Origin: Longimicrobiales bacterium
Lineage (GTDB): Bacteria; Gemmatimonadota; Gemmatimonadetes; Longimicrobiales; Gaopeijiaceae
Assembly (NCBI GenBank): GCA_965238005.1
Contig: OZ250165.1
Location: 3,392,001-3,456,000 of the forward strand
DNA: 64,000 nucleotides
Direction of reading: 5' to 3'
Position 1 is the first letter of the stretch; the number at the start of each line of letters is the position of its first letter. Positions 49,535-63,115 of this stretch are shown piece by piece. Below the pieces are notes generated by a model that did not search any database, had not been told where the DNA came from, and saw only the letters and a program-made list of their open reading frames with translations. Made by a program: the position numbers and the translations under genes.

Positions 49535-49686
49535 TCCCCCCCTGGCTCGAGACCTTCGCGGCCGATCTTGTGGACCGTATCGAGCTGGGCCTCGAAGGGG
49601 ACTGAAGCCGGTCCACCGGCCGCTCCCCACTCTCTGCGGTCCCAGAGGCCCATGGCTCAGCCCCTGATCGGGTGGGACCGTTCCCT

Positions 49687-50667
49687 ATGCGCAAGAAACC
49701 CGATCTCGAGCGATCGCTCGCCAACACTAGCCGCCTCCTGAGACAGAGGGGTTACCGGAATAGGACGGTAGACGTGTACGCGCGATGGCTCCGGCGATTC
49801 GCAGAGGCCCATCCCGGTACCGCGGTAGAGGATCTCACCAGAAGGCACGTGGAGGAGTTCTTGAGCGTTCTCACGGACCAGCGGAGGTTAGCGCCGAAGA
49901 GTCGCAATCAAGCCGCGTCCGCGCTGGCGTTTTTCTTTAGAGAGGTTCTGGGCCGCGATGATCTTGCAGGCATGCCTCGGGCCCGAGAGCCGCAACGAAT
50001 ACCGACAGTGTTATCCCACGGGCAGGCCCGACTCGTGCTCAGCCATCTGTCCGGTAAATATCGACTGCTGGGTTCGCTGATGTATGGCACAGGCGCCCGC
50101 CTGACGGAGTGTCATCAACTGCGGGTGAAGGACATCGACTTCGACCTGGTGCAGATCGCCATACGGGACGGGAAGGGTGCCAAGGACCGTTGGGTCATGC
50201 TTCCCGAGCGGCTCGGCCCGGCGCTACGCCGCCAGGTATCTTGGGTAACGGAACTGCACGAGGAGGACAGACGGCAAGGAGGCGGCTGGGCGCAACTGCC
50301 GGGTGCACTGGATCGCAAGGATCCGCGTGGGGGATACGACCTCGGTTGGCAGTTCCTGTTCCCCGCGAGCCGATGGTCACGTGATCCCGCCACTAACAGG
50401 AAAGGTCGGTACCACCTCCATCCGACAGCGATGCAGAAGCGGATGAAGGAGGCCGCGCGAGCATCCGGCATTGCCAAGCCCGTCACGTGTCACATCCTCC
50501 GCAAATCTTTTGCCACCCAGATGTTTCGGGCCGGATACGACGCGCGTTCCGTGCGGAAGCTCATGGGGCACAGGGACATCCGCACGACAATGATCTACGT
50601 GCAAGCCATCACCGACGCCGGACTGGGCATGCGCAGCCCACTTGATCGACCGGAGGACCGGGACTAG
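49687..50667 (+). CDS. intI: Integron integrase
   Basis: NQAASALAFF, YGTGARLTE, RVKDIDF, GKGAKDR, IntI-specific insert (LPGALDRKDP...WQFLFP), HILR, MGH, TTMIY. Confidence 0.93.
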   Translation: MRKKPDLERSLANTSRLLRQRGYRNRTVDVYARWLRRFAEAHPGTAVEDLTRRHVEEFLSVLTDQRRLAPKSRNQAASALAFFFREVLGRDDLAGMPRAREPQRIPTVLSHGQARLVLSHLSGKYRLLGSLMYGTGARLTECHQLRVKDIDFDLVQIAIRDGKGAKDRWVMLPERLGPALRRQVSWVTELHEEDRRQGGGWAQLPGALDRKDPRGGYDLGWQFLFPASRWSRDPATNRKGRYHLHPTAMQKRMKEAARASGIAKPVTCHILRKSFATQMFRAGYDARSVRKLMGHRDIRTTMIYVQAITDAGLGMRSPLDRPEDRD

Positions 50668-50840
50668 GCTGCCACCTACCAACAGCCCCTCCGACGCAAC
50701 TACCACGTCGCCAGCGCAGCCCAAACCCGAAGGCATGGAGGTCATAAACGGAGGCTGCACCGGGGCTGTCGGGCCCGCGCGGTCTCACCTACGTTGCCGT
50801 TCACGCAGTGGATCCGATTCAGAAGATCAAGAGGATTCGC

Positions 50841-50860
50841 GGTAGAGTTGAAAGTTAGGC
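50841..50860 (+). other. Candidate attI site (R box GTTAGGC at 50854-50860)
   Basis: GTTRRRY core about 190 bp 3' of intI and 20 bp before the first cassette ORF; no attC left arm found upstream. Confidence 0.6.
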
Positions 50861-50880
50861 GGCGCACCCAGGGAGACGAA

Positions 50881-51894
50881 ATGTCAGATCAGAGGCGGAA
50901 AGCGTTGATACCTGATAGAGACGACGGCGATGCCGTCATGGATCTCTCGAGGCGCGACATGGTTAGGATGACCGCCGGTGCCGGTGCCTATCTTGCGCTC
51001 AGTGGTTGCAGCAAGTCCGAAGTCACTTCGGGGCTCCTCACCAAGCCCATTCCGTCCTCGGGAGAGCAGATACCAGTGATTGGCATCGGAACCGCCCGGG
51101 ACCGCTTCATCCTCGACCAGCCGCCTGAAGACATTGCGATGCGGAAGCAGGTGTTTCAGGAGTTCACATCCATGGGTGGCCGCATGCTCGATGTGTTCCT
51201 AGGCGAGGACACCGAGACCTTCTGCGGCAACTTGATTCAGGAGCTGGGCAACCGCGAGCAGTTCTTCATCGCCACGAAGGAGAGCGTCAGGGCGGCAGTT
51301 AGTGCCGGTACCGATACTCGGCAAGCGGGCATCGACCGGATGAACGCATCGTTCAGCCGTTTCAACACCGACGTGATCGATCTGATGCAGATCCCGCACC
51401 TGACGGATTGGGAAAATCAGCTACCGATCCTACGTGAGTGGAAGCAGGAGGGGCGCTTCCGATACATCGGCGTGACCGTGTTTAGAAACGACCAGCACGA
51501 GGCCCTCGAATCCGTGATGCGACAGGAAGGCCTCGATTTCGTACAGCTCGACTACTCTTTGGAGGGCCGTCAGTCCGAGGAGCGCCTATTGCCACTGGCG
51601 GCCGACCGAGGAATGGCCGTGATGATCAACGTTCCCTTCCGCCGCGGCCTCGTCTTCCAGCGCCTGGGTGAACGGGAATTGCCCGGCTGGGCCGCGGAGC
51701 TGGAGTGTCAGACGATGGCACAGGTCACCCTTAAGTTCATCGTTTCGCACCCGTCTGTGACGTGCGCTATTCCCGGTACGTACAAGATGGAATACCTCAC
51801 GGACAACATGGGCGCGGCCATGGGGCCAATGCCGGATGCTGCCATGCGCCAGACCATGGCCGCATGGTATGACGCGTTGCCGGAGGTGGGCTAA
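50881..51894 (+). CDS. Cassette 1: aldo/keto reductase with Tat-like signal
   Basis: SRRDMV; IPVIGIGT, FIATK, IDLMQ, RYIGVT, VQLDYS, IPGT; bounded by GTTAGGC and CCCTAAC. Confidence 0.85.
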   Translation: MSDQRRKALIPDRDDGDAVMDLSRRDMVRMTAGAGAYLALSGCSKSEVTSGLLTKPIPSSGEQIPVIGIGTARDRFILDQPPEDIAMRKQVFQEFTSMGGRMLDVFLGEDTETFCGNLIQELGNREQFFIATKESVRAAVSAGTDTRQAGIDRMNASFSRFNTDVIDLMQIPHLTDWENQLPILREWKQEGRFRYIGVTVFRNDQHEALESVMRQEGLDFVQLDYSLEGRQSEERLLPLAADRGMAVMINVPFRRGLVFQRLGERELPGWAAELECQTMAQVTLKFIVSHPSVTCAIPGTYKMEYLTDNMGAAMGPMPDAAMRQTMAAWYDALPEVG

Positions 51895-51961
51895 GCGCGG
51901 ACGAGCACTCAAGAGACGGCGGCCGATCGAAGGACTGACATGCATAGCCCTAACAAGCGAT

Positions 51962-53639
51962 GAGGCCGTGTGAAAACTCACCATGATTGAACGGGGAGCG
52001 AGCACCTAGGGCGGTGAGCTTGACATTTTGCTGGGAGGGGCGGGAAAGTAGTCGGGTGGGGCGTTGCGGACCTGACAGGGCCGTCTGGAAGCGCCCCGAA
52101 GGGCGAAAAACGGCGCTGAGGACCCCCTCTACGCGAGGGCGTCCAGCAGCTGCGGGACCTCGACGATGTTGAGGACCCGCTTCAGGTTGTAGGCAAGCAC
52201 GGTCAGGCTGAACTCGCCGCGGACCTTCCGCATGCCTTTGAGCAGAAAGTACCCCTGGTCCATCCCGCGCTTCATCGTGCCAAACGGATGCTCCACTAGC
52301 GCTTTGCGCTGCGCGAAGCGCGCCTGCTCCCGCTGGAGCCGTTGCGCCATCTCCTCCATCAGGTGCTCGTCCGCCCACCGTGTGATCTTCCGCCCGTCTT
52401 TGTTGCGCGTACAGCGGGGCCTGAGTGGACACCGCTTACAGGCGGTGGTCCGATAGTTCTTGATGGTGCGCCCGAGCTCGACGGTGGTGGTGCGGTAGGT
52501 GAGCGTCTTCCCCGCAGGACAGCGATAGAGGTCCCGAGTCCGGTCGTAGACGAAGTCATCTTTGGTGAAGAGCCCGCGCTTGGCATTGGCCGAGGTGATC
52601 GGTCGGGGCACCAGCGGCGTGAGGCCCGCCTCCACACACGTCTTGATCTCGGCGCCGTGGTAGTAGCCCCGGTCGGCCACCACCACCGGCGTCACGTTCC
52701 TCAGTACCTCCTGGGCCGCCATGGCCATCGGACTGAGCTGATTCTGGTCGGCGGCGGCGTTGGTGACCGTCTCGGCCACAATCAACTTGTGCTTGGCGTC
52801 GACCGCGGTCTGGACGTTGTAGCAGATCTCGATGCGGCCCCCGCTCATCATCGGCCGACTGTCGGCATCGGTGAGTGAGCGCGCGCTCTCCCCACTCGCC
52901 GCCAGCTCTTGCTGGAGATCCTCGTAGCGCTCCCGGCGCTGCTTAAGCGCCGCAATCTTCTCGCGCAGGGCGTCGGCGCTCGGCCGCTCGGTGCCCGCCT
53001 CCGCCTCGTCCTGGCGCTCCAAGTCTCGCAGATAGCGCGCGATCGTGCGCTCGATGTCCCGTTGTAGCTTGGCCAAGCGGGCCGCGGTGTAGCTCCGATC
53101 CCGGGCATTGACCGCCCGGAACTTGCTCCCATCGATGGCGAGCAACTCGCCGCCAAAGAGGTCCAGCCGCTTGCACAAGAGAATGAACTCGCGGCATACG
53201 CCCTTCAGCGCCTGCGGGTGATCCCGGCGGAAGTCAGCGATGGTCTTGAAGTCGGGTCGCAGTCCTCGCACCAACCACATCAGCTCGATGTTGCGATGCG
53301 TCTCCTGCTCCAGCCGCCGGCTGGAGCGAATGCGGTGCAGGTAGCCGTATAGGTACAATCGCAGGAGATCACCGGGATCGTAGCCCGGGCGGCCCGTATC
53401 TGCAGGCACCGATCGCTGAAAACTGAGCGTGCCGAGATCGAGCTGCGCCACGAAGGCGTCGAGGAAGCGCACTGGGTTGTCAGCGGTGACGTAGTCGTCG
53501 AGGACCTCAGGGAGGAGCACCACTTGGGTGCGATCCCTGCCGGCGATATAGGCCATGGGCGAAGCTCCGAGCAAGGGGAGCACTGGCCAAAACACGGGAC
53601 GTATAATATATGGCACGTCAGGAGTTTTCACACAGGCTC
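51962..53639 (-). mobile_element. IS1182-family element with 4-bp target duplication
   Basis: 18-bp imperfect IRs GAGGCCGTGTGAAAACTC / GAGTTTTCACACAGGCTC; CGAT duplicated at 51958-51961 and 53640-53643. Confidence 0.9.
52129..53556 (-). CDS. IS1182-family transposase
   Basis: GRPGYDP, SSRRLE, PDFKTIADFR, IDGSKF, YNVQ, ADRGY, VEHPFGTMK, AYNLKR. Confidence 0.93.
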   Translation of the reverse strand: MAYIAGRDRTQVVLLPEVLDDYVTADNPVRFLDAFVAQLDLGTLSFQRSVPADTGRPGYDPGDLLRLYLYGYLHRIRSSRRLEQETHRNIELMWLVRGLRPDFKTIADFRRDHPQALKGVCREFILLCKRLDLFGGELLAIDGSKFRAVNARDRSYTAARLAKLQRDIERTIARYLRDLERQDEAEAGTERPSADALREKIAALKQRRERYEDLQQELAASGESARSLTDADSRPMMSGGRIEICYNVQTAVDAKHKLIVAETVTNAAADQNQLSPMAMAAQEVLRNVTPVVVADRGYYHGAEIKTCVEAGLTPLVPRPITSANAKRGLFTKDDFVYDRTRDLYRCPAGKTLTYRTTTVELGRTIKNYRTTACKRCPLRPRCTRNKDGRKITRWADEHLMEEMAQRLQREQARFAQRKALVEHPFGTMKRGMDQGYFLLKGMRKVRGEFSLTVLAYNLKRVLNIVEVPQLLDALA

Positions 53640-53899
53640 CGATCGCTACAGTCGCGGAAGGAGCGAGTGGCTCGCGCGTGCCGCGCTCGGTGACCAGATT
53701 GGCCGCGCAGTAGAATCGCGAGACGTTCTATGAAAGAGAGTGTCAAGAGCGGCTCCGCCCCGGCTGGATGCGAAGCCGTGTTGGGCTTGGCACTCAGCCC
53801 CTTGGTTGGATTAGCCGGATCGTCAGAGAGCGGTGTGCTGGATGAGTCAGTCTTCGTGTGGGCCATGATGATCCTCGCTTGGATGATCGATCCGTCCGG

Positions 53900-54140
53900 A
53901 CTTGATTGAGTGGACCTGGGTCGTACGACGCGAACCATGGTTCTATCTGAGACTCAGCGGCTTGATACTTCTTCGGGTTCTGCGGAAGGGCCTGGAGTTA
54001 GACTCGTGCCTCGGCATGACTGCGAGCCGGGCGTACGTCTCGCGTTGAGACTGCCTCCCGCACCGTCGTCCGGGGATTCGACGTTCCAAGGGATCGAGGG
54101 TCATACGCTGCACCCTACGCTCCGGGACGACGAACCCCCT
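53900..54140 (-). ncRNA. Candidate bridge/seek RNA of element C (boundaries approximate)
   Basis: ACGTCTCGCG (54035-54044) is the reverse complement of the left target flank; GTTAGA (53997-54002) equals the right target flank; a hairpin lies between them; GTTCTAT (53940-53946) equals the element end. Confidence 0.7.
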
Positions 54141-55134
54141 CTATATTTGGGGTCGACTCAGCTGGGTCGGATCAAAGACTTCTCCGGTTTTGAGTAGACG
54201 AAGGGTGAGCGCGGCGAGCTTACGCGCCAGCGTCACACGGGCGAGCTCCTCGCGCATCCCGCGCTCGATCATTCGGTGATAGAAATCTTGTAGAGGGCCC
54301 CGACGTCCGATGGCTACGTTGGCGGCGCCCTTAAAGACATTCTTGAGTACGCGATTGTGGTTGGGGTTCAACCCTCGCGTGAGTGGAGGGCGACGACGAC
54401 GACGAGGGCGCCCATCAAACAACTCGTAGTCGGCGCCTTGGTCTTCTTGCGCTGAGTCCGAAGCACATCGAGCTGAGCGTACAGGGTCTCGGCACGTAGC
54501 CGAGCACCGTGCTCGGGTAGCTGTGCGACCCAGGCGGCGCGCCCCTTCGGCTGGTAGACACCGCCGCCCGTGGTTCGGATGGCCCGCGCACGGAAGAGTG
54601 CCTTGAGCCGCAGCATCACGCGCGTGCCGTCCTCGACGAGGTTGCGATAGGCTCGAGTTAGACACCGCCGCCCGTGGTTCGGATGGCCCGCGCACGGAAG
54701 AGTGCCTTGAGCCGCAGCATCACGCGCGTGCCGTCCTCGACGAGGTTGCGATAGGCTCGAGTCAGCTCCTTGAGATCGCCTCGGCCGTGTGCGCCGTGGT
54801 ATACCGCTCGCAGGCTGCCGCACCGCAACTGCTCCGACAGTTCGTCGGCATCGACCTGGTCCCCCTTGTTGCCCGATCGCTTCTCGCCTCTGCGGTCGCA
54901 CACGATCACCCGGTCTACACGAGGACTCAGTAGGTCGTAGAGCCACTGCGCCTGTGTTCCCTCCTCGAACACCACGTGCACCGACCCAGCCATCGCGCTG
55001 AAGAACTCCCTTATCGATTCGTCGCTCGTCTCCACCACGCTGCGCGCGATCACACGCCCCCCTTCGCTCCGAACCGTCGCCACCGTCATTGCCTGGTGCA
55101 CGTCGAGCCCCACATACTTGGTGTTCCGCTTCAT
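54141..55134 (-). pseudogene. IS110-family transposase pseudogene
   Basis: YVGLDVH, VFEEG, KGDQVDA, C-terminal NRVLKNVF...ARVTLARKLA; broken by a 104-bp duplication and an internal deletion. Confidence 0.85.
54555..54762. repeat. Exact 104-bp tandem duplication
   Basis: 54555-54658 equals 54659-54762 (TAGACACCGCC...GGCTCGAGT). Confidence 0.92.
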
Positions 55135-55329
55135 GAGAGCCGCCCTCTGCTGTGGTCCATGGTTGTTTCGCAACTCCACGGTACCCACAGGGGGCGTGCT
55201 TTCAAGTTGTGTTAGAGCGCACCCCGGAACGCTTTCGGTCCTACGTGCGCGAGAAACCTTGCGATAACGAATGAGATACTTTATTTACCACAGTACTCTG
55301 CATCAGTTTGTTCTCCGCTCCGCGGACTC

Positions 55330-56566
55330 ATGAAAGCGACGACCGACCGCATCCTCCAGCTGCTCGATGATCCCGAAGAGCTCGAGGCACTCTATCGGCA
55401 GGCCCCGGAGGCGTTTCGCGAGTCGCTCGGCGAGGCCTTCCGTACGGATCCCGATTCGGTGGCGCTGCGCATATGGCGGGCGCGACTTGAGTACCGCGAG
55501 CCGGGTCAGGGGGCGATTTTGCCTCGTAGGCTGGGTTATGCGATCGCGATCGCCCTGGCCGTCGGTGCGCTCGTCCGACTCCCGGCTCTCTGGCTCGGGG
55601 AGGTACTACCCTCGTCTTGCACCGTCGTGGGTCATCATGGCGCTTGCCGCGTATTTCTGGATCAGGCGTCCCGACCGTAGCCTGCTGATCGCGGGCTTGG
55701 GCCTGTCCCTCGCAGTCGTCGTCTATGTCAGCCGGCTCCCAGACTACACCGACTCAGTAGTAATGGCCCTGGTCCACCTCCCGTTCGTCTTCTGGACCTT
55801 CCTCGGACTGGTGTTCATGGGAGACTCGTGGCGAGAGGCGGATGCGCGGGTCCGCTTTGTTCGCTACAACGGTGAGCTGGTGGTTCTGGCCAGCCTAGTG
55901 GCGCTCGGCGGGATGGTGTTCAGCGGGGTGACGGTCGCCTTGTTTGAGTTGGTTTACGAGAACATCGGGGATTGGTACTTCAGCAACGTCGGAGTCTTCG
56001 GTGCCGCCGCCGTACCCGTCGCCGGGACGTATTTGTACGATGCCGTGTTCAATGAACGGACCGGGATCGCGGCAGTGCTCGCACGCGTCTTCGCCCCCCT
56101 CTTCTTAGTAATGGCGGTCACCTACTTGATTGTCGCGTTCATCGGAGGCGAGAACCCGTTCGTCGACCGTTCCTTCCTGATCACGTTCAACGGCTTGCTA
56201 CTCGTAGTACTTGGCATCTCGGTCTTTTCGATCGTGGAACGCGCCGAGGGGTCGCAGGTGGGGTTGATAGACTACATCAACATTACGCTCGTATTGGTCA
56301 CTCTCGTGATGGACGCGATCGCGCTATCCGCGATTCTTTTCAGGATGGCGTCCTTCGGATTCACGCCGAACCGAGTGACCGTGCTTGGAGCCAATCTGGT
56401 CATCATGGTGCACCTCGCATGGATATGCTGGACCTACGTCGCGCTAGTGCGCCGGAGGGCGGGGTTTGCGGCGATGCGGCGGGTCGTGGGAAGCTACCTC
56501 CCGATCTACGGGGCTTGGGCCGCCGTCGTTGCCTTCCTCCTGCCGCTAGTCTTTGCGTTCGCTTGA
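55330..56566 (+). pseudogene. Cassette 2: polytopic membrane protein (DUF4153-like) with a frameshift near 55600
   Basis: ORF 55330 supplies the N-terminus (to LPALWLGE) and ORF 55367 supplies YYPRLAP...GFTPNRVTVLGAN; bounded by GTTAGAG (55211) and AGCTAAC (56616-56622). Confidence 0.7.
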
Positions 56567-56622
56567 GACAGAGCCAGATCTCCCTGCGTCTACCAATAGC
56601 TCTTGCCAAGGCGCGAGCTAAC

Positions 56623-56880
56623 ACCATTAAGAAGGACCGGGTCAAGAGTACGCACTGATCCTGAGGCGGCGGGCGATGCCCCCAGATATGGGCGCTCTTG
56701 AACGCACACTCCCGCGGACAACCCGGTTCGGGGGAAGTCTGACTACTTGTGGCCTAACGACTAACGTCACCGCTCTCTTCCTCAGCTTCCCGCCCGACTC
56801 CTCTTATCGCCTCGGAGTCCATGGAGACTGGGCTCGGGCAAGACCCCTGTGCTTCAACTGATTAAAGAGGAACTCGAGGT
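56623..56880 (-). mobile_element. Possible orphan IS110/IS1111-type 3' end 'D' directly after an attC R'' stub (right boundary unknown)
   Basis: TAAC followed by 19 nt then TCAAGAG, the same geometry as element A; non-coding; no attC body follows. Confidence 0.45.
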
Positions 56881-57048
56881 GCCAGCCGTCATGCGCGATC
56901 GGCGACCTGGGTAGGGGTCGGGCGTCAGGACCGAGCCCCAGATTCACGGAACATCCTAGCGCTCAACCTCCGCACCACCCTACAATTCCCCCCCGGGTCC
57001 TCCTTCCTCGGACTCGGTTCGGTTTCCCCGGGCCTGAGAGGCAATCCC

Positions 57049-58518
57049 ATGCGCGCACCGAACCTGATGGCGATCCGGTCGACCTTGTTCGTCGCTCTCA
57101 CGACAGCTGCCCTCACCACCCTCGCGCTCGCGGCCGCACCGACCCACGCGGGCGCCCAGGCGACCGCCTCGGATTCCGAGGTCCTGGCTCAGATCGACCT
57201 CTTCTCCGCGTGGCTCGAAGGTCAGATCGAGATCCGTGGACTACCGGGCGCCGTCGGCGGCGTCGTTTCGGGTGATGAGCTGGTGTGGGCTGAGGGCTTC
57301 GGACGTGCGGACGTCGATGCGGATCGGCCCATGGAGACCGATATGCGCTTCCGCATGGCTTCGCACAGCAAGCTCTTCACCGCAACTGCTATCATGCAGC
57401 TCCGGGAACAAGGCAAGGTTCGGCTTGATGATCCCGTCACCGATTACCTGCCATGGTTCACCTTCCAGAGCGCCGCTCCTGACGATCCTCCGGTCACCAT
57501 CGAGCACCTGCTAACGCACAGCTCCGGGCTCCCGCGCGAGGCCGGTTCGCACTGGACCGACTTCGACTTCCCAACCCCCGAGGAGGTCCTCGAGTTGATG
57601 CCCGATCGTCAGGCCCCCTTCTCACCCGAAGTCCGCTGGAAGTACTCGAACCTCGCCTACACCATCGCCGGCATGATCGTGGAGGCGATCAGCGGGATGA
57701 GCTGGGCGGACTACCTTAAGCAGAACATATTTGACCCGCTCGGCATGAGCTCGTCTAGCGTCGATCTGCCGGACGCGAAGATGGCTACTGGGTACGGCCG
57801 TCGGATGCCCGACGGCTCTCGGCAGGTCTTTCCGTTCGTCGACGCGCGCGGGATGGCCGCCGCGACGGGACTCACGTCGACGGTCGAAGACATGGCCCGC
57901 TTCGTGTCTGCCCAGTTTCGGACGGGGGCCCGCGGCGGTGACCGGCTTCTGAGGACGGCATCGCTTCGGGAGATGCATCGTGTGCGCATGCTCGAAAACA
58001 CGTGGACGAGCGGCCAAGGCATCGGATTCAGCGTGCGACGGATCGACGGGAAGCTCTATGTCGGCCACGGCGGCGGATACCCGGGCTACACGACGAACAC
58101 GACGATCCAGCTCGACTCGAAGGTTGGTGTAATCGTTCTAACGAACACGAATGACTCGAACCCTTCCCAGATCGCGGAGCAGCTCATGGGCACGGTCGGC
58201 GAAGCTGTCGCCTCCGCGACCACAGTCGAGCCGGAGGTCGTCGCGTGGGATCCCGCGTGGGAGCGCTTCGCCGGTGTGTACCGGAGCCGCGGCGGCGAGA
58301 CGCGAGTCCTCGTCATGAACGAACGGCTGGTGACGATGAATCCGTGGGGCACGAGTATCGGGGACCCGACCCAACTCGAACTGATCGGCGACGGGACGTT
58401 TCGCATGGTGGCGCCCACAGGTGGTGGCCCGGTCGGCGAGATCGTCCGGTTCGTCGAGGAGAACGGCGAGGTCGTACGGATGATTACAGGAGATTCGTAC
58501 TCCGTACGCGTGCGCTAG
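57049..58518 (+). CDS. Secreted serine hydrolase (beta-lactamase / AmpC-like fold)
   Basis: Signal peptide; SHSK (SxxK), LLTHSSGL, YSN, HGGG. Confidence 0.9.
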   Translation: MRAPNLMAIRSTLFVALTTAALTTLALAAAPTHAGAQATASDSEVLAQIDLFSAWLEGQIEIRGLPGAVGGVVSGDELVWAEGFGRADVDADRPMETDMRFRMASHSKLFTATAIMQLREQGKVRLDDPVTDYLPWFTFQSAAPDDPPVTIEHLLTHSSGLPREAGSHWTDFDFPTPEEVLELMPDRQAPFSPEVRWKYSNLAYTIAGMIVEAISGMSWADYLKQNIFDPLGMSSSSVDLPDAKMATGYGRRMPDGSRQVFPFVDARGMAAATGLTSTVEDMARFVSAQFRTGARGGDRLLRTASLREMHRVRMLENTWTSGQGIGFSVRRIDGKLYVGHGGGYPGYTTNTTIQLDSKVGVIVLTNTNDSNPSQIAEQLMGTVGEAVASATTVEPEVVAWDPAWERFAGVYRSRGGETRVLVMNERLVTMNPWGTSIGDPTQLELIGDGTFRMVAPTGGGPVGEIVRFVEENGEVVRMITGDSYSVRVR

Positions 58519-58537
58519 AAGCGGCTCGACCCGCCGT

Positions 58538-58697
58538 TTCGTCTGGCGATCTGGCGATGCGCATGACGTTGAGATCGTCGACTACCACTAGGAGGCATCT
58601 AATGACCACATCGACGATGGCGCCGGTACACCCAGGCGAGGTCTTGCTTGAGGAGTTCCTCGAACCAATGGAGATTAGCCAGTGCCGACTGACGAAG
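58538..58697 (+). pseudogene. higA: Truncated higBA toxin-antitoxin remnant
   Basis: FVWRSGDAHDVEIVDYH* (HigB C-terminus, stop 58591), then GGAGG and MTTSTMAPVHPGEVLLEEFLEPMEISQ (HigA N-terminus from 58602). Confidence 0.8.
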
Positions 58698-58876
58698 GAC
58701 GGGTCCCTCCACGAGCTGACCCGTGTTGCTCACGATGGCGATCACTGAATACGTTGCATGGGCGTCGATTCCTGCGACAAACATGGCTGGCCTCCTTGGG
58801 TTCGGGTGCCGCAGGCCTTGAGTAAGCACAGTGCAACACCCAGCCCGAGTGAGGTCCGCCCTTCGCCTTATAAGAT
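58692..58876 (-). mobile_element. 5' remnant of IS110-type element 'B1' abutting the attC L' box
   Basis: MFVAGIDAHATYSVIAIVS from ATG 58784; end TTATAAGAT joined to the attC right arm. Confidence 0.75.
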
Positions 58877-58897
58877 CAGAATCGCGAGACGTTATGC
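58877..58897 (+). other. Right arm of an attC site (partial L', spacer, R' GTTATGC)
   Basis: AGAATCGCGAGACGTT (58878-58893) is identical to the attC1 right arm (53712-53727). Confidence 0.8.
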
Positions 58898-58923
58898 GGC
58901 GCCGCCTGGCTGAGAGAATAGAC

Positions 58924-59286
58924 TCACGCAGGCTCGAACAGTTCGATCGGATTGCCATCCAGGTCTTCTGCGAGGCTCTGCCTGCCACCAGGGCCGCTAA
59001 TAATCTCGCTCCGGAACTGGACTCCGGCCCGCGTAAGCCTCTCGACCTCGGCATCCAAATCATCGACGTCGATGAGGATGCGGTTCCAACCGCCCGGCTC
59101 TGTCACACGTCCGTCGGGCATCGAGCGGCGTCCCGAGGACTTGGGGCCGCTGAGCAAGAGGGTGAGGTCTCCTCGAGTGACGATACAGATCGCGGGGGCT
59201 TGTAGCTCGATTACGAAACCGAAGTACTCGGTGTAAAAGGCCGCCGCCGCCCCGGGGTCGTTGACCATGTACCTCACTCTCGCCAT
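58924..59286 (-). CDS. VOC/glyoxalase-family protein carried antisense within a cassette
   Basis: VRYMVND...FYTEYFGF...GGWNRI...DLDGNPIELFEP; cassette bounded by GTTATGC (58891) and ACATAAC (59458-59464). Confidence 0.9.
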   Translation of the reverse strand: MARVRYMVNDPGAAAAFYTEYFGFVIELQAPAICIVTRGDLTLLLSGPKSSGRRSMPDGRVTEPGGWNRILIDVDDLDAEVERLTRAGVQFRSEIISGPGGRQSLAEDLDGNPIELFEPA

Positions 59287-59499
59287 TCCTGCCTCCAACC
59301 ACCCATATGACATTTTGGCACGACCCCCGGCTTTTGGATGAACCATCAACTCAGATGGGATCTCTATCACGCGCACCTAGAAGCCAAGGTCGATCTGCAG
59401 AGGATCAAGCCGCTCCGCAGAAAAGACCTGGCTAGAACTGCGTAGCGCGGGCGCGCCACATAACACTTATCAGGCCCCCGGAATCAAGAGCGCGCATGT

Positions 59500-59734
59500 C
59501 CCCCAGCGTGCCGCGGAGCGGCGCGTAGAAGAGTGAGCATCGGTCGCCGAGTCCTCTGACTTGGTTTCCGTAGGCAGGTGCGAGCGTAGGGAGCCTCTGC
59601 ACCAAACACTTATCGAGGTTCAACCGCCGGGTGCCCTTCGAGACGAGCTCGAAGGCGGCGGAGCAGGAGCCTCGTGTCCGCTCCTGCGACCTAGAAATTC
59701 ATCTGTACCCTCGTGCCGTCCGACTCCATTCAAG
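59500..59734 (-). ncRNA. Candidate bridge/seek RNA of element A (boundaries approximate)
   Basis: Structured, conserved in a second copy at ~63650-63888; internal AACACTTATC (59605-59614) equals the element end; TAGGCA is complementary to the attC R'' flank TGCCTA. Confidence 0.6.
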
Positions 59735-59924
59735 GTGAGCGGGCTCAGGCCGTGTTGTGAGGCCAGGCCAGTTAGCTCCGGGCTCGGGTGAGGGGCAGAG
59801 TCCATGGTGGACCGATGGCGATGTGTGTGAGGAGCGGGAGGAGGCGTCCAATCAAGCGAAGCGGCTGCCAACCATCCGCTGTCGGCTCGAGTTATATGTC
59901 AGGCTCGCCGACCTCCCCTCCCCG

Positions 59925-60971
59925 TCAGGTGCGGGTATAGAAGCGTTCGGTGTCGAATGCCTGCCGGTTCTTGAGCATGAAGTAGGTCGCCCGGCCGATG
60001 CGAGCGGCGAGGATGCTGAGCGCTTTGCCCTTGCCGTGGCGGCGCGTGAGCTTCTTCAGATGAGCCTGGCCGCGGGCGTTGTCCCTGAGGAAGAGCACGG
60101 CGGCCTCGCTGAAGGCCCATTTGAGATGAGCGTTCCCGATCTTGGCTCCTCCGCTGCCGACCCGCTTGCCTGCACTGCGGTGCTCGGGCTTAGCGAGTCG
60201 ACAGTAGGAGCTGAAGCGCTGCACTGTGCTGAAGCGAGCGATGTCGTGGATCTCATAGAGCAGGGTGAGCGCCAGGATGCGGCCGACGCCGGGGATGGTT
60301 CGGAGCCGCTCCAGCGTGTCGAAGTCGTGGACACGGGCTTCCTGTTCGACCGTGTGCTCGAGCGCTCGGATCACCGGGTCGTAGCGATCGGCCAGGGCGA
60401 GGTCCGCCTCGATCGTCCTTTGGGTCATGGGATCATCGAATGCCTCGGCCAGGCCCTGGCGGTTCTTCTTGTACAGGAGCTGACCGGAGGGTCGAGGCAG
60501 GTTGTACTGATGGAAGGTGTTACGGATGTGGGCGAGCAGTTCGCCTCGCTTGCGCACGAAGTAGAGTCGGCGCCGGAGCACGTCGCGTGTGGCGCGCATC
60601 CCAGGTGGATAGACGTAGGCGACGGGAAAGGCGCCGCCTCGCAGCAGGACCGCCGTCTTGTGGGAGTCGATCTTGTCGTTCTTGGCCTTGGCCCCATGAA
60701 TCGCCTTCATGTAGAGCGCATGGCCGAGCACGAAGTGGATCTGCTCGCGAGCACACAGATCGGCCAGCCAGTACCAGCAGAAGATGCACTCGCTGCCCAC
60801 GACGAGGTCTGAACGGTAGGGCTCGAGGGCGCGAAGGAGTGCCTCGCGCTCACAGCGTAGCCTCTTGTGCAGGCGTATCTTGCCCTGGCAGTCCAGGACG
60901 CAGAGGTAGAGTGTGCGAGCATGAAGGTCGATGCCACAGTAGTATCGATGCTGGCCTGTGTAGAAGCGCAT
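59925..60971 (-). CDS. IS110-family DEDD transposase (recombinase), intact
   Basis: GIDLH, GSEC, KNDKIDS, IPGVG, HRSAG (catalytic Ser), GNAHLKWAF. Confidence 0.93.
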   Translation of the reverse strand: MRFYTGQHRYYCGIDLHARTLYLCVLDCQGKIRLHKRLRCEREALLRALEPYRSDLVVGSECIFCWYWLADLCAREQIHFVLGHALYMKAIHGAKAKNDKIDSHKTAVLLRGGAFPVAYVYPPGMRATRDVLRRRLYFVRKRGELLAHIRNTFHQYNLPRPSGQLLYKKNRQGLAEAFDDPMTQRTIEADLALADRYDPVIRALEHTVEQEARVHDFDTLERLRTIPGVGRILALTLLYEIHDIARFSTVQRFSSYCRLAKPEHRSAGKRVGSGGAKIGNAHLKWAFSEAAVLFLRDNARGQAHLKKLTRRHGKGKALSILAARIGRATYFMLKNRQAFDTERFYTRT

Positions 60972-61452
60972 GGTTCCCCTCCTGGGTTGGATGAATCGAG
61001 TTTGGCGCTCTGATTCTTCCGCCCTCTCTTCGAGAGGTCCAGGAGGGGGCCTGCATGAGCAGGCTTGCTACTGGCGCGTGCGACATCAGGCTCGCGCGCT
61101 TCGCTTGCAGTCGCCATCTTGGTCGCCGGCCGAACCCCGAATAGGTGCTCGAGTCCCTGAGGACTGCACGAGCGAGCTTGCGTGCAGTGGCGATGCGAGC
61201 GATGCGCCAATCGAGCCGATCCTTGAGCCGGTCGTAGTACTCGCTGAGCCAGCTTTCGGGAGATCGGCCGTGATGGATGACGACGGTCTGGACGAAGGCG
61301 TTTCGGAGCTAGCGATTGGCACCGGCCGGGATGGGCCCGTAGCGGACCGTCATCCCGGAACGAGCAGCACTGCGTCGATCGCATCGTTCTTGTAGTTGGC
61401 TTCGGCGATCGCGGCTTCTGAACAAGCGCTCCGTCTTTGCTCACCACCGCAA

Positions 61453-62909
61453 GAAGCTGTCCCAACCGTAGTTGAAGGTTCCTGATAGGGGAGAAAGAAA
61501 AGTGGTGGCTCCGGGGGTCCCGGGCCGATAGGCTCGGGTAGGCAAAAACCCCAACACGGAGCCACCACGATGAAGAGAACGTACGAGGTAAGGGATCGGG
61601 CGGACAAGCGCGCGATCAGGGAGTTCCTGAAGCGGGAGGGGCAGTTTCTGCTTCCGATGCTTGAGCTCGTGGAGCAGACGGAGGTCGCGATCGACGAAGT
61701 CATCCAGGTGATGGGACGAGCGACGATCGAAGCGGTGCTGGAGATGAGCGCCGAGGGTGTGGCAGGCGTGAAGCAGGCAGGTCGGTCACGAGCGGAAGAC
61801 GACACGGTGTGGTATGGCCGGCAGGGTGGTGTGGTTTACCTGTCGGACCGGAAGGTGCGTGTGGAGCGGCCACGGCTCAGGCGCCGGGGCGCCGGGGAGG
61901 GTGGCGAGGTCGAGGTGCCGGCGTACGCAGCGATGCGGAGACCGGGCGCCGTGGCGGATCGGATGCTCGAGGTCCTGATGGCGGGGGTGAGCACGCGGAA
62001 GTACGGCCGTGTGATCGGTGAGATGGCCGACACGGTCGGGGTGAGCAAGTCGGCGGTGAGCCGTGAGACGGTCGAGGCCTCGGAGCGCGTGCTGAAGGAG
62101 CTGATGGAGCGCCGGCTGGATGCGTGGGACCTCCTGGTGATCTACCTGGACGGGATCCAGATGGGCTCGCACCACGTGCTTGCTGCGGTAGGCGTGGACT
62201 CAGACGGAAAGAAGCACGTGCTGGGCGTGAGGGAAGGAGCGAGTGAGAACGCCGAGGTGACCAGCGCGCTCCTAGAGGATCTGGTCGAGCGCGGCCTGGA
62301 CCCGGGCAGGCGGCGGCTGTTCGTGATCGATGGCTCGAAAGCGCTCAGGAAGGCGATCGAGAAGGTGTTCGGCCAACGTCACCCCATCCAGCGCTGCCGC
62401 AACCACAAGCTCCGCAACGTGCTGGGTCATCTGCCGAAGGATCAGCATCCTCAGGTGAAGGCGGCGTTCCGGGCGGCGATGAAGCTGGACGCGAAGCAGG
62501 GCGAGCAGAAGCTCGAGCAGCTCGCCCGATGGCTCGAGCGCGACCACCCCTCGGCCTCGGCCAGCCTACGCGAAGGCCTCAGCGAGATGTTCACGATCAA
62601 CCGGCTCGGCCTCCCGCCGCGGCTGAGGAAGTGCCTGGGCTCGACCAACCTGATCGACAGCACCCACTCGGGCGTAAGACAGAAGACCCGCAGGGTGACC
62701 AACTGGAAGAACGGAGCGATGGCCTTGCGCTGGGCTGCGGCCTCGTTCGTGGAGACCGAGAAGACCTACCGGAGGATCATCGGCTACGACCAGCTCTGGA
62801 TGCTCAGGGCCCACCTCGACGACCATGAACCGGTGGCCGAAATGAGAAAGGCAGGCTAACAAGGAGACTCTCCGGAGCCACCACCTTCAACTGTCAGCGG
62901 GACACCATC
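61453..62909 (+). mobile_element. IS256-family element with 8-bp target duplication
   Basis: IRs GAAGCTGTCCC...GTTGAAGGT / ACCTTCAAC...GGGACACCATC; CACCGCAA at 61445-61452 and 62910-62917. Confidence 0.92.
61570..62859 (+). CDS. IS256-family (mutator-type) transposase
   Basis: GVSTRK, SKSAVSR, IYLDG, VIDGSKAL, QRCRNH, STNLID. Confidence 0.95.
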   Translation: MKRTYEVRDRADKRAIREFLKREGQFLLPMLELVEQTEVAIDEVIQVMGRATIEAVLEMSAEGVAGVKQAGRSRAEDDTVWYGRQGGVVYLSDRKVRVERPRLRRRGAGEGGEVEVPAYAAMRRPGAVADRMLEVLMAGVSTRKYGRVIGEMADTVGVSKSAVSRETVEASERVLKELMERRLDAWDLLVIYLDGIQMGSHHVLAAVGVDSDGKKHVLGVREGASENAEVTSALLEDLVERGLDPGRRRLFVIDGSKALRKAIEKVFGQRHPIQRCRNHKLRNVLGHLPKDQHPQVKAAFRAAMKLDAKQGEQKLEQLARWLERDHPSASASLREGLSEMFTINRLGLPPRLRKCLGSTNLIDSTHSGVRQKTRRVTNWKNGAMALRWAAASFVETEKTYRRIIGYDQLWMLRAHLDDHEPVAEMRKAG

Positions 62910-63115
62910 CACCGCAACGACCAGATACGTTGTGTGCGCATCGATTCCTGCGACATACATGATGGCCTCCTGGTGGTTGGCAGCCGCAGGTTCTTGGAGA
63001 AGTACCAGCGTAGTGCGCCGGCCATTGGGAGGCCATCCGCTTTATAAGGTCAGCAGAAGCGCAAAGTCGTTAGGCATCCGAGAACCGAGAGGGGCAGTGA
63101 ACGCATTCCATCTTC

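Follow-up and report, generated by a model that had tools for sequence, protein, structure and literature searches.

A decayed IS1111-type element in the R′ box of an integron attC site

The window analysed here is a stretch of 64,000 nucleotides from a Longimicrobiales bacterium (assembly GCA_965238005.1, contig OZ250165.1, positions 3,392,001–3,456,000 of the forward strand), and within it a degenerate insertion sequence (IS) of the IS110 family lies on the minus strand inside a cassette recombination site (attC) of an integron. The long non-coding end of the element carries a structured block in which two short segments match the two sides of its target. Our comparison of the element with its relatives supports the reading that it is an RNA-guided IS1111-type element whose guides read attC and whose insertion point is the GTT of the R′ box, a reading to which we assign a probability of about 0.87. 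The features of the element, in window coordinates, are as follows.

53725–53727, plus strand: GTT core, left-hand copy, corresponding to the G/TT in the R′ box of attC; the attC spacer CGCGAGAC lies just before it
53728–55210, minus strand: IS110-family, IS1111-type IS, 1483 bp plus one GTT core, degenerate; ends taken from genome copies and related loci
53731–53736: right subterminal partner of the repeat, TGAAAG on the plus strand, 3 nt inside the right end
53932–53980, minus strand: RNA module 2, presumed donor-binding loop (RNAalifold, pair counts)
53982–54061, minus strand: RNA module 1, target-binding loop (RNAalifold, pair counts)
53997–54002, minus strand: 3′ target guide TCTAAC, the same sequence as left flank plus core read along the element, and so pairing with the opposite strand
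54035–54044, minus strand: 5′ target guide, CGCGAGAC plus GT, pairing with the core AC and the eight bases that follow the element on its right (AC-GTCTCGCG, read in the direction of the element)
54141–55134, minus strand: broken transposase gene, with a readable DEDD N-terminal part
55198–55205, minus strand: TTGAAAGC, the left-hand subterminal repeat, set in 5 nt from the left end
55211–55217, plus strand: right GTT plus AGAG, which make up the R′ box as it was before insertion (GTTAGAG) and begin the next cassette

The ends were set by comparing five copies or fragments from the same genome, every one of them defective or partial, and 79 related loci. On the plus strand, ...GAATCGCGAGAC-GTT (53725–53727) is followed by CTATGAAAG... 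of the element, and at the far side ...CAAGTTGT of the element is followed by GTT-AGAG... (55211–55213). The empty site is CGCGAGAC-GTT-AGAG, and GTT is present at both junctions. In element orientation, the target derived from the junctions of the genome copies reads YCT-AAC to the left of the element and AAC-GTCTCGCGATTCT to the right of it.

The non-coding ends are markedly unequal, with 76 nt on the left versus 413 nt on the right, and the structured block (54061–53932) lies past the stop codon in the long right end. The subterminal repeat TGA[A/G]AGC is set in by 5–6 nt at the left end and by 3 nt at the right, and its variants TGAAAGC and TGAGAGC switch at both ends together across lineages; at 7 nt it stands at the short limit of the 7–17 bp given for the subterminal inverted repeats of the IS1111 group. 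The IS1111 layout outlined in PMC11208160 pairs a short left end with a long right end that contains the RNA, and includes subterminal repeats. Because the ends, the subterminal repeats and the position of the RNA match this description, we assign the element to the IS1111 group, and to judge from its sequence it is a decayed copy of such an IS.

The transposase belongs to the DEDD type of the IS110 family, and the gene itself is broken in the window. An N-terminal open reading frame (ORF; 54658–55188, minus strand) matches PF01548 (E 1e-11) as well as the NCBIfam model NF033542, named ‘IS110 family RNA-guided transposase’. Among the intact relatives listed, which are up to 95% identical and mostly 354 amino acids long, both PF01548 and PF02371 are present.

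A conserved two-module RNA structure in the right end

Three segments of the right end match the target or the element end, as the initial annotation had recorded together with the GTT on both sides of the element. The segment CGCGAGACGT on the minus strand (54044–54035) equals the left flank on the plus strand (53717–53726), TCTAAC (minus strand, 54002–53997) complements GTTAGA at 55211–55216, and ATAGAAC (minus strand, 53946–53940) complements GTTCTAT at 53725–53731.

Relatives were collected by a search of one genome per species, giving 79 loci from the best 80 of 225 confirmed stretches. These loci lie mostly in Gemmatimonadota assemblies, with a few under other labels, and their transposase identity ranges over 65–98%. 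Even the distant relatives (transposase identity 65–73%) retain a block of ~157 nt that corresponds to window positions 54074–53918. In an alignment of 40 distinct versions of this block, the scaffold is near constant, and variation is concentrated in 8–9 nt at guide 1 and in the 4–5 nt before AAC at guide 2.

A consensus structure was computed with RNAalifold from 36 distinct sequences, comprising the window and 35 of the 36 distinct locus versions, with right ends from Gemmatimonadota relatives; L049 was omitted because its block lacks homology in the 5′ half. The consensus consists of two like modules, each with a stem, an internal loop and a hairpin. Module 1 is closed by the stems 54061–54055/53988–53982 and 54051–54048/53993–53990, and its internal loop, with the hairpin 54032–54008, holds CGCGAGACGU in the 5′ strand and UCUAAC in the 3′ strand. 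Both guides are unpaired in the consensus. Module 2 is formed by the closing stem 53980–53976/53936–53932, a 5′ strand (53975–53964), a hairpin (53963–53950) that is truncated in the window, and a 3′ strand (53949–53937) that holds ATAGAAC (53946–53940), the sequence of the right end plus core. The 30 consensus pairs fall into five helices, 99.2% of the 1076 cells are paired, and 12 of the 30 pairs show compensatory changes on both sides. None of 500 shuffles reached any of the pairing measures, and sliding the partners by 1–3 columns lowered pairing to 29.6–46%.

Folding with homologues and testing for covariation, which the initial annotation had named as a check, thus yielded two modules with compensatory change. 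The hairpin that it placed between the guides exists, with a consensus pairing of GCCCGG with CCGAGGC in place of the CTCG/CGAG and TGCC/GGCA stems. Its expectation that the guides would be looped holds for the loop-1 strands in the consensus and fails in the minimum-energy fold of the window sequence alone, which pairs the GAGAC of guide 1.

Guides and flanks change together across lineages

The decisive support for guide RNA recognition comes from the covariation of guides and flanks in the relatives. Guide patterns were applied to 65 of the loci, the window and a second long copy of the same genome (copy B); the other 14 loci had no RNA block, either by truncation or by failure of the anchor pattern to find it. 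The patterns failed for L039, L045, L049, L053 and L058, which left 62 rows. For guide 1, the 8 nt before the conserved GU were compared with the 8 nt right of the element, and for guide 2, the 5 nt before AAC in the 3′ strand were compared with the left flank. Guide 1 agrees with the right flank at a mean of 6.04 of 8 positions, against 3.06 (standard deviation 0.28) in shuffled pairings, over 43 distinct events and 24 distinct guides. The corresponding mean for guide 2 is 3.98 of 5, against 2.35 (standard deviation 0.27), over 39 distinct events and 11 distinct guides. The observed mean was reached in 0 of 10,000 shuffles for guide 1 and likewise in 0 of 10,000 for guide 2, and the covariation of guide and target that had been proposed as a check on the initial annotation is therefore present for both guides.

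Guide 1 matches its flank at all eight positions in the window, L014, L035 and L089, and at seven of eight in L038, L046, L055, L056, L057, L062 and L063, with a different guide in each of these seven. For guide 2, L047, L048, L072 and L086 match at all five positions. In the L056 lineage, the core is GAC in the guide as well as in the flank. Inspection by eye of the loci that the patterns had dropped gave 7/8 for L053 and 5/8 for L058 with guide 1; L045 has too little flank, and L049 has no loop. The many unrelated guide sequences are separate reprogramming events.

The same correspondence is seen among the attC sites of OZ252253, which carries 13 copies of a related element. All seven distinct occupied attCs have the spacer AGAGAC, an exact match to the guide of that element, and all four distinct empty attCs in the same loci have another spacer, namely AGATCC (twice), AGAGCC or AATCC. 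The AGATCC spacer is matched by the guide of the L036 element.

Taken together, each strand of an internal loop complements a different strand of the target and covaries with it, as the strands of a bridge RNA or seekRNA do. The placement of the guides in loop 1, their hypervariability within a block of ~150 nt and the covariation bear out the proposal in the initial annotation that the 3′ non-coding region encodes an RNA of this type and that the two target segments it named are the guides.

Two empty attC ends in the source genome, at 58879–58893 of the window and at genome position 297378 (minus strand), match guide 1 at 8/8 (GAATCGCGAGAC-GTT), with ATAAC or GTAAC on the other side and not CTAAC. 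Either the second guide matters at these sites or the IS died before it could occupy them.

The window copy is a fossil

The transposase gene of the window copy is broken by a perfect 104-nt tandem duplication (54555–54658 and 54659–54762) and is without ~172 nt that are present in copy B. In addition, the hairpin of the donor module has suffered an 8-nt deletion and two substitutions relative to copy B, L013 and L014. The deletion is confirmed by contigs from RNA libraries, since all of these keep the 8–9 nt that are absent from the window copy at 53957. With a broken transposase gene and a damaged donor module, the window copy cannot act; it is a fossil, dead twice over. The initial annotation was right to call the transposase dead, and its statement that the guides are intact applies to the target loop and not to the donor module.

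Copy B (G000:C1:1619601-1620320) itself carries a perfect tandem duplication inside the transposase gene (180 nt × 4.0, 100% identical, TRF). The tandem duplications, seen in both long copies of the IS, may reflect a real mode of decay or an assembly artefact.

The insertion point is the R′ GTT of attC

The attC site that holds the element belongs to an integron whose features in the window are as follows.

49672–50667, plus strand: integron integrase gene intI, oriented like the cassettes (TIGR02249 score 326.8 bits, cut-off 265)
50855–50861, plus strand: probable attI core GTTAGGC, ~190 nt past the intI stop
51948–51961, plus strand: 5′ part of the attC (R″ CCCTAAC, AA, GCGAT), starting 54 nt after the stop of the aldo/keto-reductase gene
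51962–53640, minus strand: IS1182-family IS in the 5′ arm of the same attC (NF033551, 424 bits, 500-amino-acid transposase; terminal repeats)
53641–53724, plus strand: rest of the attC, from the L″ arm to the spacer CGCGAGAC (nhmmer match to the attC profile at 53640–53732, E 1.3e-13)

The attC is an imperfect palindrome of ~100 nt with the paired arms GCGAT.. and ..AATCGC. Its box consensus in integrons is RYYYAAC for R″ and GTTRRRY for R′, and with both IS removed the site runs from CCCTAAC to GTTAGAG, as an integron attC does. A profile built from the attC sites of one related genome gave ten plus-strand matches downstream of intI, which are the attC of the element and nine further sites over the next 18 kb of the genome; the array thus runs at least 18 kb beyond the element, past the end of the window. 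The initial annotation had placed the insertion at the R′ GTT of an integron attC, and this is upheld by the adjacent intI, the profile matches and the direction of the cassette ORFs.

Since the site is nearly palindromic, with RYYYAAC/GTTRRRY readable at its ends on one strand or the other, its orientation decides what the insertion point is. If the element strand were the top strand of attC, the element would sit at the 5′ end, at R″, away from the IntI crossover. The unpaired spacer is indeed longer on the arm proximal to the element (6 nt versus 2 nt), and it was from this long spacer that the element strand was first read as the top strand. An intI gene that points as its cassettes do is also the less common arrangement, which we take to be the ‘inverted integrase’ type. 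Three lines of evidence overturn that assignment. First, the cassette ORFs lie on the plus strand with an attC after each; the first, an aldo/keto reductase, ends at 51894 and its attC begins at 51948. The longest ORF is on the plus strand in 7 of the 8 cassette intervals with an ORF of more than 100 amino acids, and four cassettes of OZ252253 also have their long ORFs on the strand opposite the element. Second, the array and the probable attI are placed accordingly: GTTAGGC, ~190 nt past the intI stop, is followed by GGCGCACCC, which resembles the cassette start GTTAGAG-CGCACCCC after the element. Third, the plus-strand 5′ arm has two extra bases, and such asymmetry of the stem marks the top strand of an attC. 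Because of ORF direction, the position of array and probable attI, and stem asymmetry, we read the plus strand as the top strand, with the element at the R′ GTT and antisense to the cassettes. A different IS in the same array (59462–61047) occupies the R″ end, and the reverse orientation would make our element sense-oriented, whereas the published attC-targeting group is described as antisense (PMC3001079). We therefore regard the reverse orientation as quite improbable.

The element is accordingly inserted into attC antisense to the cassettes, as are the IS1111 elements that target attC, and lies at the 3′-end GTT and not near the 5′ end of the site. A further candidate, in which CGCGAGAC would be a terminal repeat of the neighbouring IS1182-family element (GAATCGCGAGACGTT recurs at 58879), was rejected, the repeat being the 3′ arm of attC. 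One attC thus carries two unrelated IS, and the end of a second IS1182-family copy lies at genome position 31256.

Weighing of the RNA-guided reading

Several observations weigh against the reading of the element as RNA-guided and directed to attC. The matches in the window are by themselves only moderately unlikely (p ~0.01–0.02): among 5000 mononucleotide shuffles of the 413-nt non-coding end, compared with the 33-nt empty site, 109 held some match of at least 10 nt and 62 held a 10-nt complementary match plus a 6-nt identical match. Single-sequence folds are no stabler than shuffles (z −0.05 for the window, −0.83 for L014), and the pairing of guide-1 GAGAC in the minimum-energy fold of the window engages a conserved upstream GUCUC. 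No Rfam family matched, an E-value scan of 50000–60000 giving only a chance snoRNA match, and neither a sigma-70-like promoter nor an intrinsic terminator was found within 53650–54300. The RNA-library contigs, which cover the non-coding end at 88–99% similarity in four metatranscriptome runs from four studies, are weak evidence of transcription; they cannot show strand, ends or transcription, and such libraries can contain DNA. In run X15, the contigs cover only 53777–54095 and none lies over the transposase part; we did not count this as a sign of a separate small RNA.

Some guide-1 fits are poor, with 1/8 in L086, 2/8 in L028, L033 and L073, and 2/8 by eye in L039, and the permutation test ignores shared descent among lineages. 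As for the donor side, ATAGAAC never varies, which makes covariation impossible there. By eye, no more than 5 of 8 positions, plus GT, agree between the 5′ strand of loop 2 and the left end, a single left-end base (the first) changes with this strand, and four of six lineages with a ‘GG’ left end show no matching change. TCAAGT near 53913–53900 and the 5′ strand of loop 2 were each tried as a guide to the left donor end and set aside, with no convincing covariation in either. Recognition of the donor by the RNA, of which only half is visible, is what we infer from the right-end segment of loop 2.

The range of targets also speaks against strict specificity for attC. Only 9 of 54 distinct right flanks match the narrow attC profile, a figure that is a floor, as the profile comes from one genome; about a dozen more right flanks carry ..AGCTGCG.. 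at the matching distance. Three of the 13 copies in OZ252253 lie outside attC-like sequence, at sites that match the guide. The few profile matches, together with insertions in GTCTCAC arrays in CBDFJJ, indicate that the wider family is not strictly attC-bound. In CBDFJJ (Gemmatimonadales; L070, L073, L076, L082 and L083), at least 16 copies of a related IS are present, many of them in arrays of the heptamer GTCTCAC/GTCTAAC, which are not attC-like; the heptamer resembles the site specified by the guide.

It is conceivable in this light that the transposase recognises the folded attC or its sequence, that the right-end block has some other role and that the matches are incidental. attC sites are structured, which would suit such recognition, and the modest significance of the matches in the window, the unexceptional folding of single sequences and an RNA not observed directly would all be accommodated. 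By comparison, incidental matches leave unexplained why guide and flank vary in concert over 24 and 11 distinct guide variants, sites outside attC included, and why compensatory changes keep five helices. Furthermore, the IS110 family has been found experimentally to be RNA-guided in the work reported in PMC11187229 and PMC11208160. Recognition without a guide is thus very improbable, and the RNA-guided reading is retained.

Proposed mechanism

According to the RNA-guided reading, the DEDD transposase of intact relatives would work with a bridge/seek RNA of ~130 nt encoded downstream of its gene, and this RNA would be transcribed, the transposase binding it. The 5′ strand of loop 1 (8 variable nt plus GU) would pair with one DNA strand to the right of the AC core, and the 3′ strand (~4–5 variable nt plus AAC) would pair with the opposite DNA strand on the left side of the core. 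In this way the guides would read the attC spacer and the R′ box, overlapping on the AC within AAC, the complement of the R′ GTT. Insertion would fall in the GTT of the cassette boundary, with the element antisense to the cassettes and a GTT retained on either side. Loop 2 appears to carry the element's own right end plus core (AUAGAAC), and presumably holds the circular donor junction, with strand exchange expected to follow at the core. The observed anatomy of the element, the conserved structure, the covariation of guides and flanks and the attC context are consistent with this course of events.

IntI cuts within the GTT triplet, with which the AC core of the element overlaps. The geometry would allow the element to ride the integron, as the initial annotation had proposed, the IS and the next cassette forming a composite cassette that IntI excises and re-inserts, given that GTT is kept on both sides; in line with this, 10 of the 13 copies in OZ252253 lie in two cassette arrays. 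Insertion turns the R′ box from GTTAGAG into GTTCTAT, however, replacing the four outer bases and leaving only GTT able to pair with R″, and because the box is altered in this way the use of an occupied attC by IntI should weaken. None of the 13 copies shares a downstream cassette with another, and none shares a 5′ flank. The occupied attCs are exactly those that match the guide (7/7), and three of the 13 copies in OZ252253 and most of those in CBDFJJ lie outside recognisable attC, at guide-like sequences. RNA-guided transposition alone explains this distribution, so that IntI is not required, and we consider spread as a composite cassette unlikely.

Comparison with known systems

IS1111 elements that target attC have reportedly been described since 2008–2009, by Tetu and Holmes in 2008 and by Post and Hall in 2009. 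Members of this group (ISPa21, ISPst6, ISKpn4 and ISPa25) resemble the present element in their DEDD transposase, in site-specific insertion into attC and in lying antisense to the cassettes. They also resemble it in having an RNA downstream of tnp with one segment for each target strand (PMC11187229), and the seekRNAs of ISKpn4, ISPst6 and ISPa25 were shown or predicted in 2024 to match both target strands, according to the account of Siddiquee et al. (PMC11187229). The group differs in its site, which a single sentence of PMC3001079, on which this comparison turns, places ‘near the 5′-end’ of attC; the present clade lies at the 3′ R′ GTT. The hosts are also distinct: Gemmatimonadota with chromosomal integrons and intI in the cassette direction here, as against Pseudomonas or class 1 integrons in the published group. 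Among 145 matching plasmid records, no plasmid-borne relative of the transposase exceeds 30% identity, so the transposase is not close to those of clinical elements.

Like the bridge RNA of IS621, also of the IS110 group (Durrant et al. 2024), the RNA has two internal loops, one for the target and one, presumably, for the donor (PMC11208160). In the IS621 loops as described there, the 5′ strand of 8–9 nt and the 3′ strand of 4–7 nt pair with opposite DNA strands and overlap on the core dinucleotide (PMC11208160). The present RNA differs in its position in the right end, as compared with the left end in IS621, and in its strand order, which assigns the right flank to the 5′ strand and the left flank to the 3′ strand; such a reversal is reported for IS1111 types in PMC11187229. 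In addition, the core is AC within AAC here and CT in IS621, and pairing with the left donor end is weak here.

Two further systems are comparable in part, as far as the accounts drawn on here describe them. IS4321/IS5075, of the IS1111 group, share the subterminal repeats and a specific site inside another mobile element, whereas in place of attC they target the terminal inverted repeat of Tn21-family transposons. Group IIC-attC introns are likewise RNA-guided mobile elements on attC that lie antisense to the cassettes (PMC3001079), but, as retro-elements, they move by reverse splicing, and their insertion point is close to the 5′ end of attC.

Full-text searches on attC with bridge RNA, which led to the IS621 paper, and on IS and attC in integrons of Gemmatimonadetes, which led to unrelated work, gave no description of this clade. 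What is new is a distant clade and an insertion point at the 3′ crossover end of attC; the principle is already published, and no new mechanism is involved. The clade offers a natural and well-sampled case of bridge/seek-RNA reprogramming, in which an 8-nt guide is the main difference between close relatives, and every element is found in the attC subtype matched by its guide. With this clade, the range of IS that target attC reaches beyond clinical Pseudomonas and class 1 integrons to the sedentary integrons of Gemmatimonadota. Moreover, the clade shows that a programmed target can be the very boundary between cassettes, which bears on how IS shape or freeze cassette arrays; an integron survey of 2024 describes experimental evidence on the effects of IS on cassette arrays as limited (PMC11616780).

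Other mobile elements of the array

A second IS110-family element lies at 59462–61047, with an intact transposase gene at 59925–60971 on the minus strand (348 amino acids; PF01548 and PF02371; NF033542, 184.6 bits) and a 3′ non-coding end of 460 nt; another copy runs from 63601 to the end of the window. The element sits antisense directly after the AAC of an attC R″ box, and the attC resumes at ~61050. At the left junctions of the element and of the second copy, CACATAAC and GCCTAAAC, respectively, are followed by ACTTATC. This position corresponds to the ‘5′-end’ site reported for the known IS1111 elements on attC. Degenerate copies precede other attCs at genome positions 3455601–3456186 and 3459368–3459701.

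A third IS110-family element is represented by a fragment at 58600–58880 (minus strand), whose 5′ non-coding end starts with GATCTTATAAGG and whose N-terminus reads MFVAGIDAHATY. Related starts are found at 62776–63060, in L013 from 1519 onward and in L036 from 3001 onward. The fragment abuts CAGAATCGCGAGAC-GTT, which in the same attC family lies ~17 nt upstream from the R′ GTT; this junction is found again in two other genomes, and also at genome position 2844904. Accordingly, this attC is cut by three IS110-family lineages at three fixed positions.

A crossover of the IS inside the crossover triplet of IntI could in principle couple the two recombination systems, a speculation to which we attach a low probability. 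An IS that formed a composite cassette with its neighbour would gain a second, integrase-driven route of spread for an RNA-guided IS; alternatively, the IS would act as a lock that freezes the cassette boundary. Together with the two other lineages, the attC would then be a partitioned landing pad for three IS110-family RNA-guided lineages.

The array also contains a Mutator-family transposase (PF00872) at 61570–62859, and one of the cassettes carries an ORF of 489 amino acids (57049–58518) for a serine hydrolase of the beta-lactamase family (PF00144).

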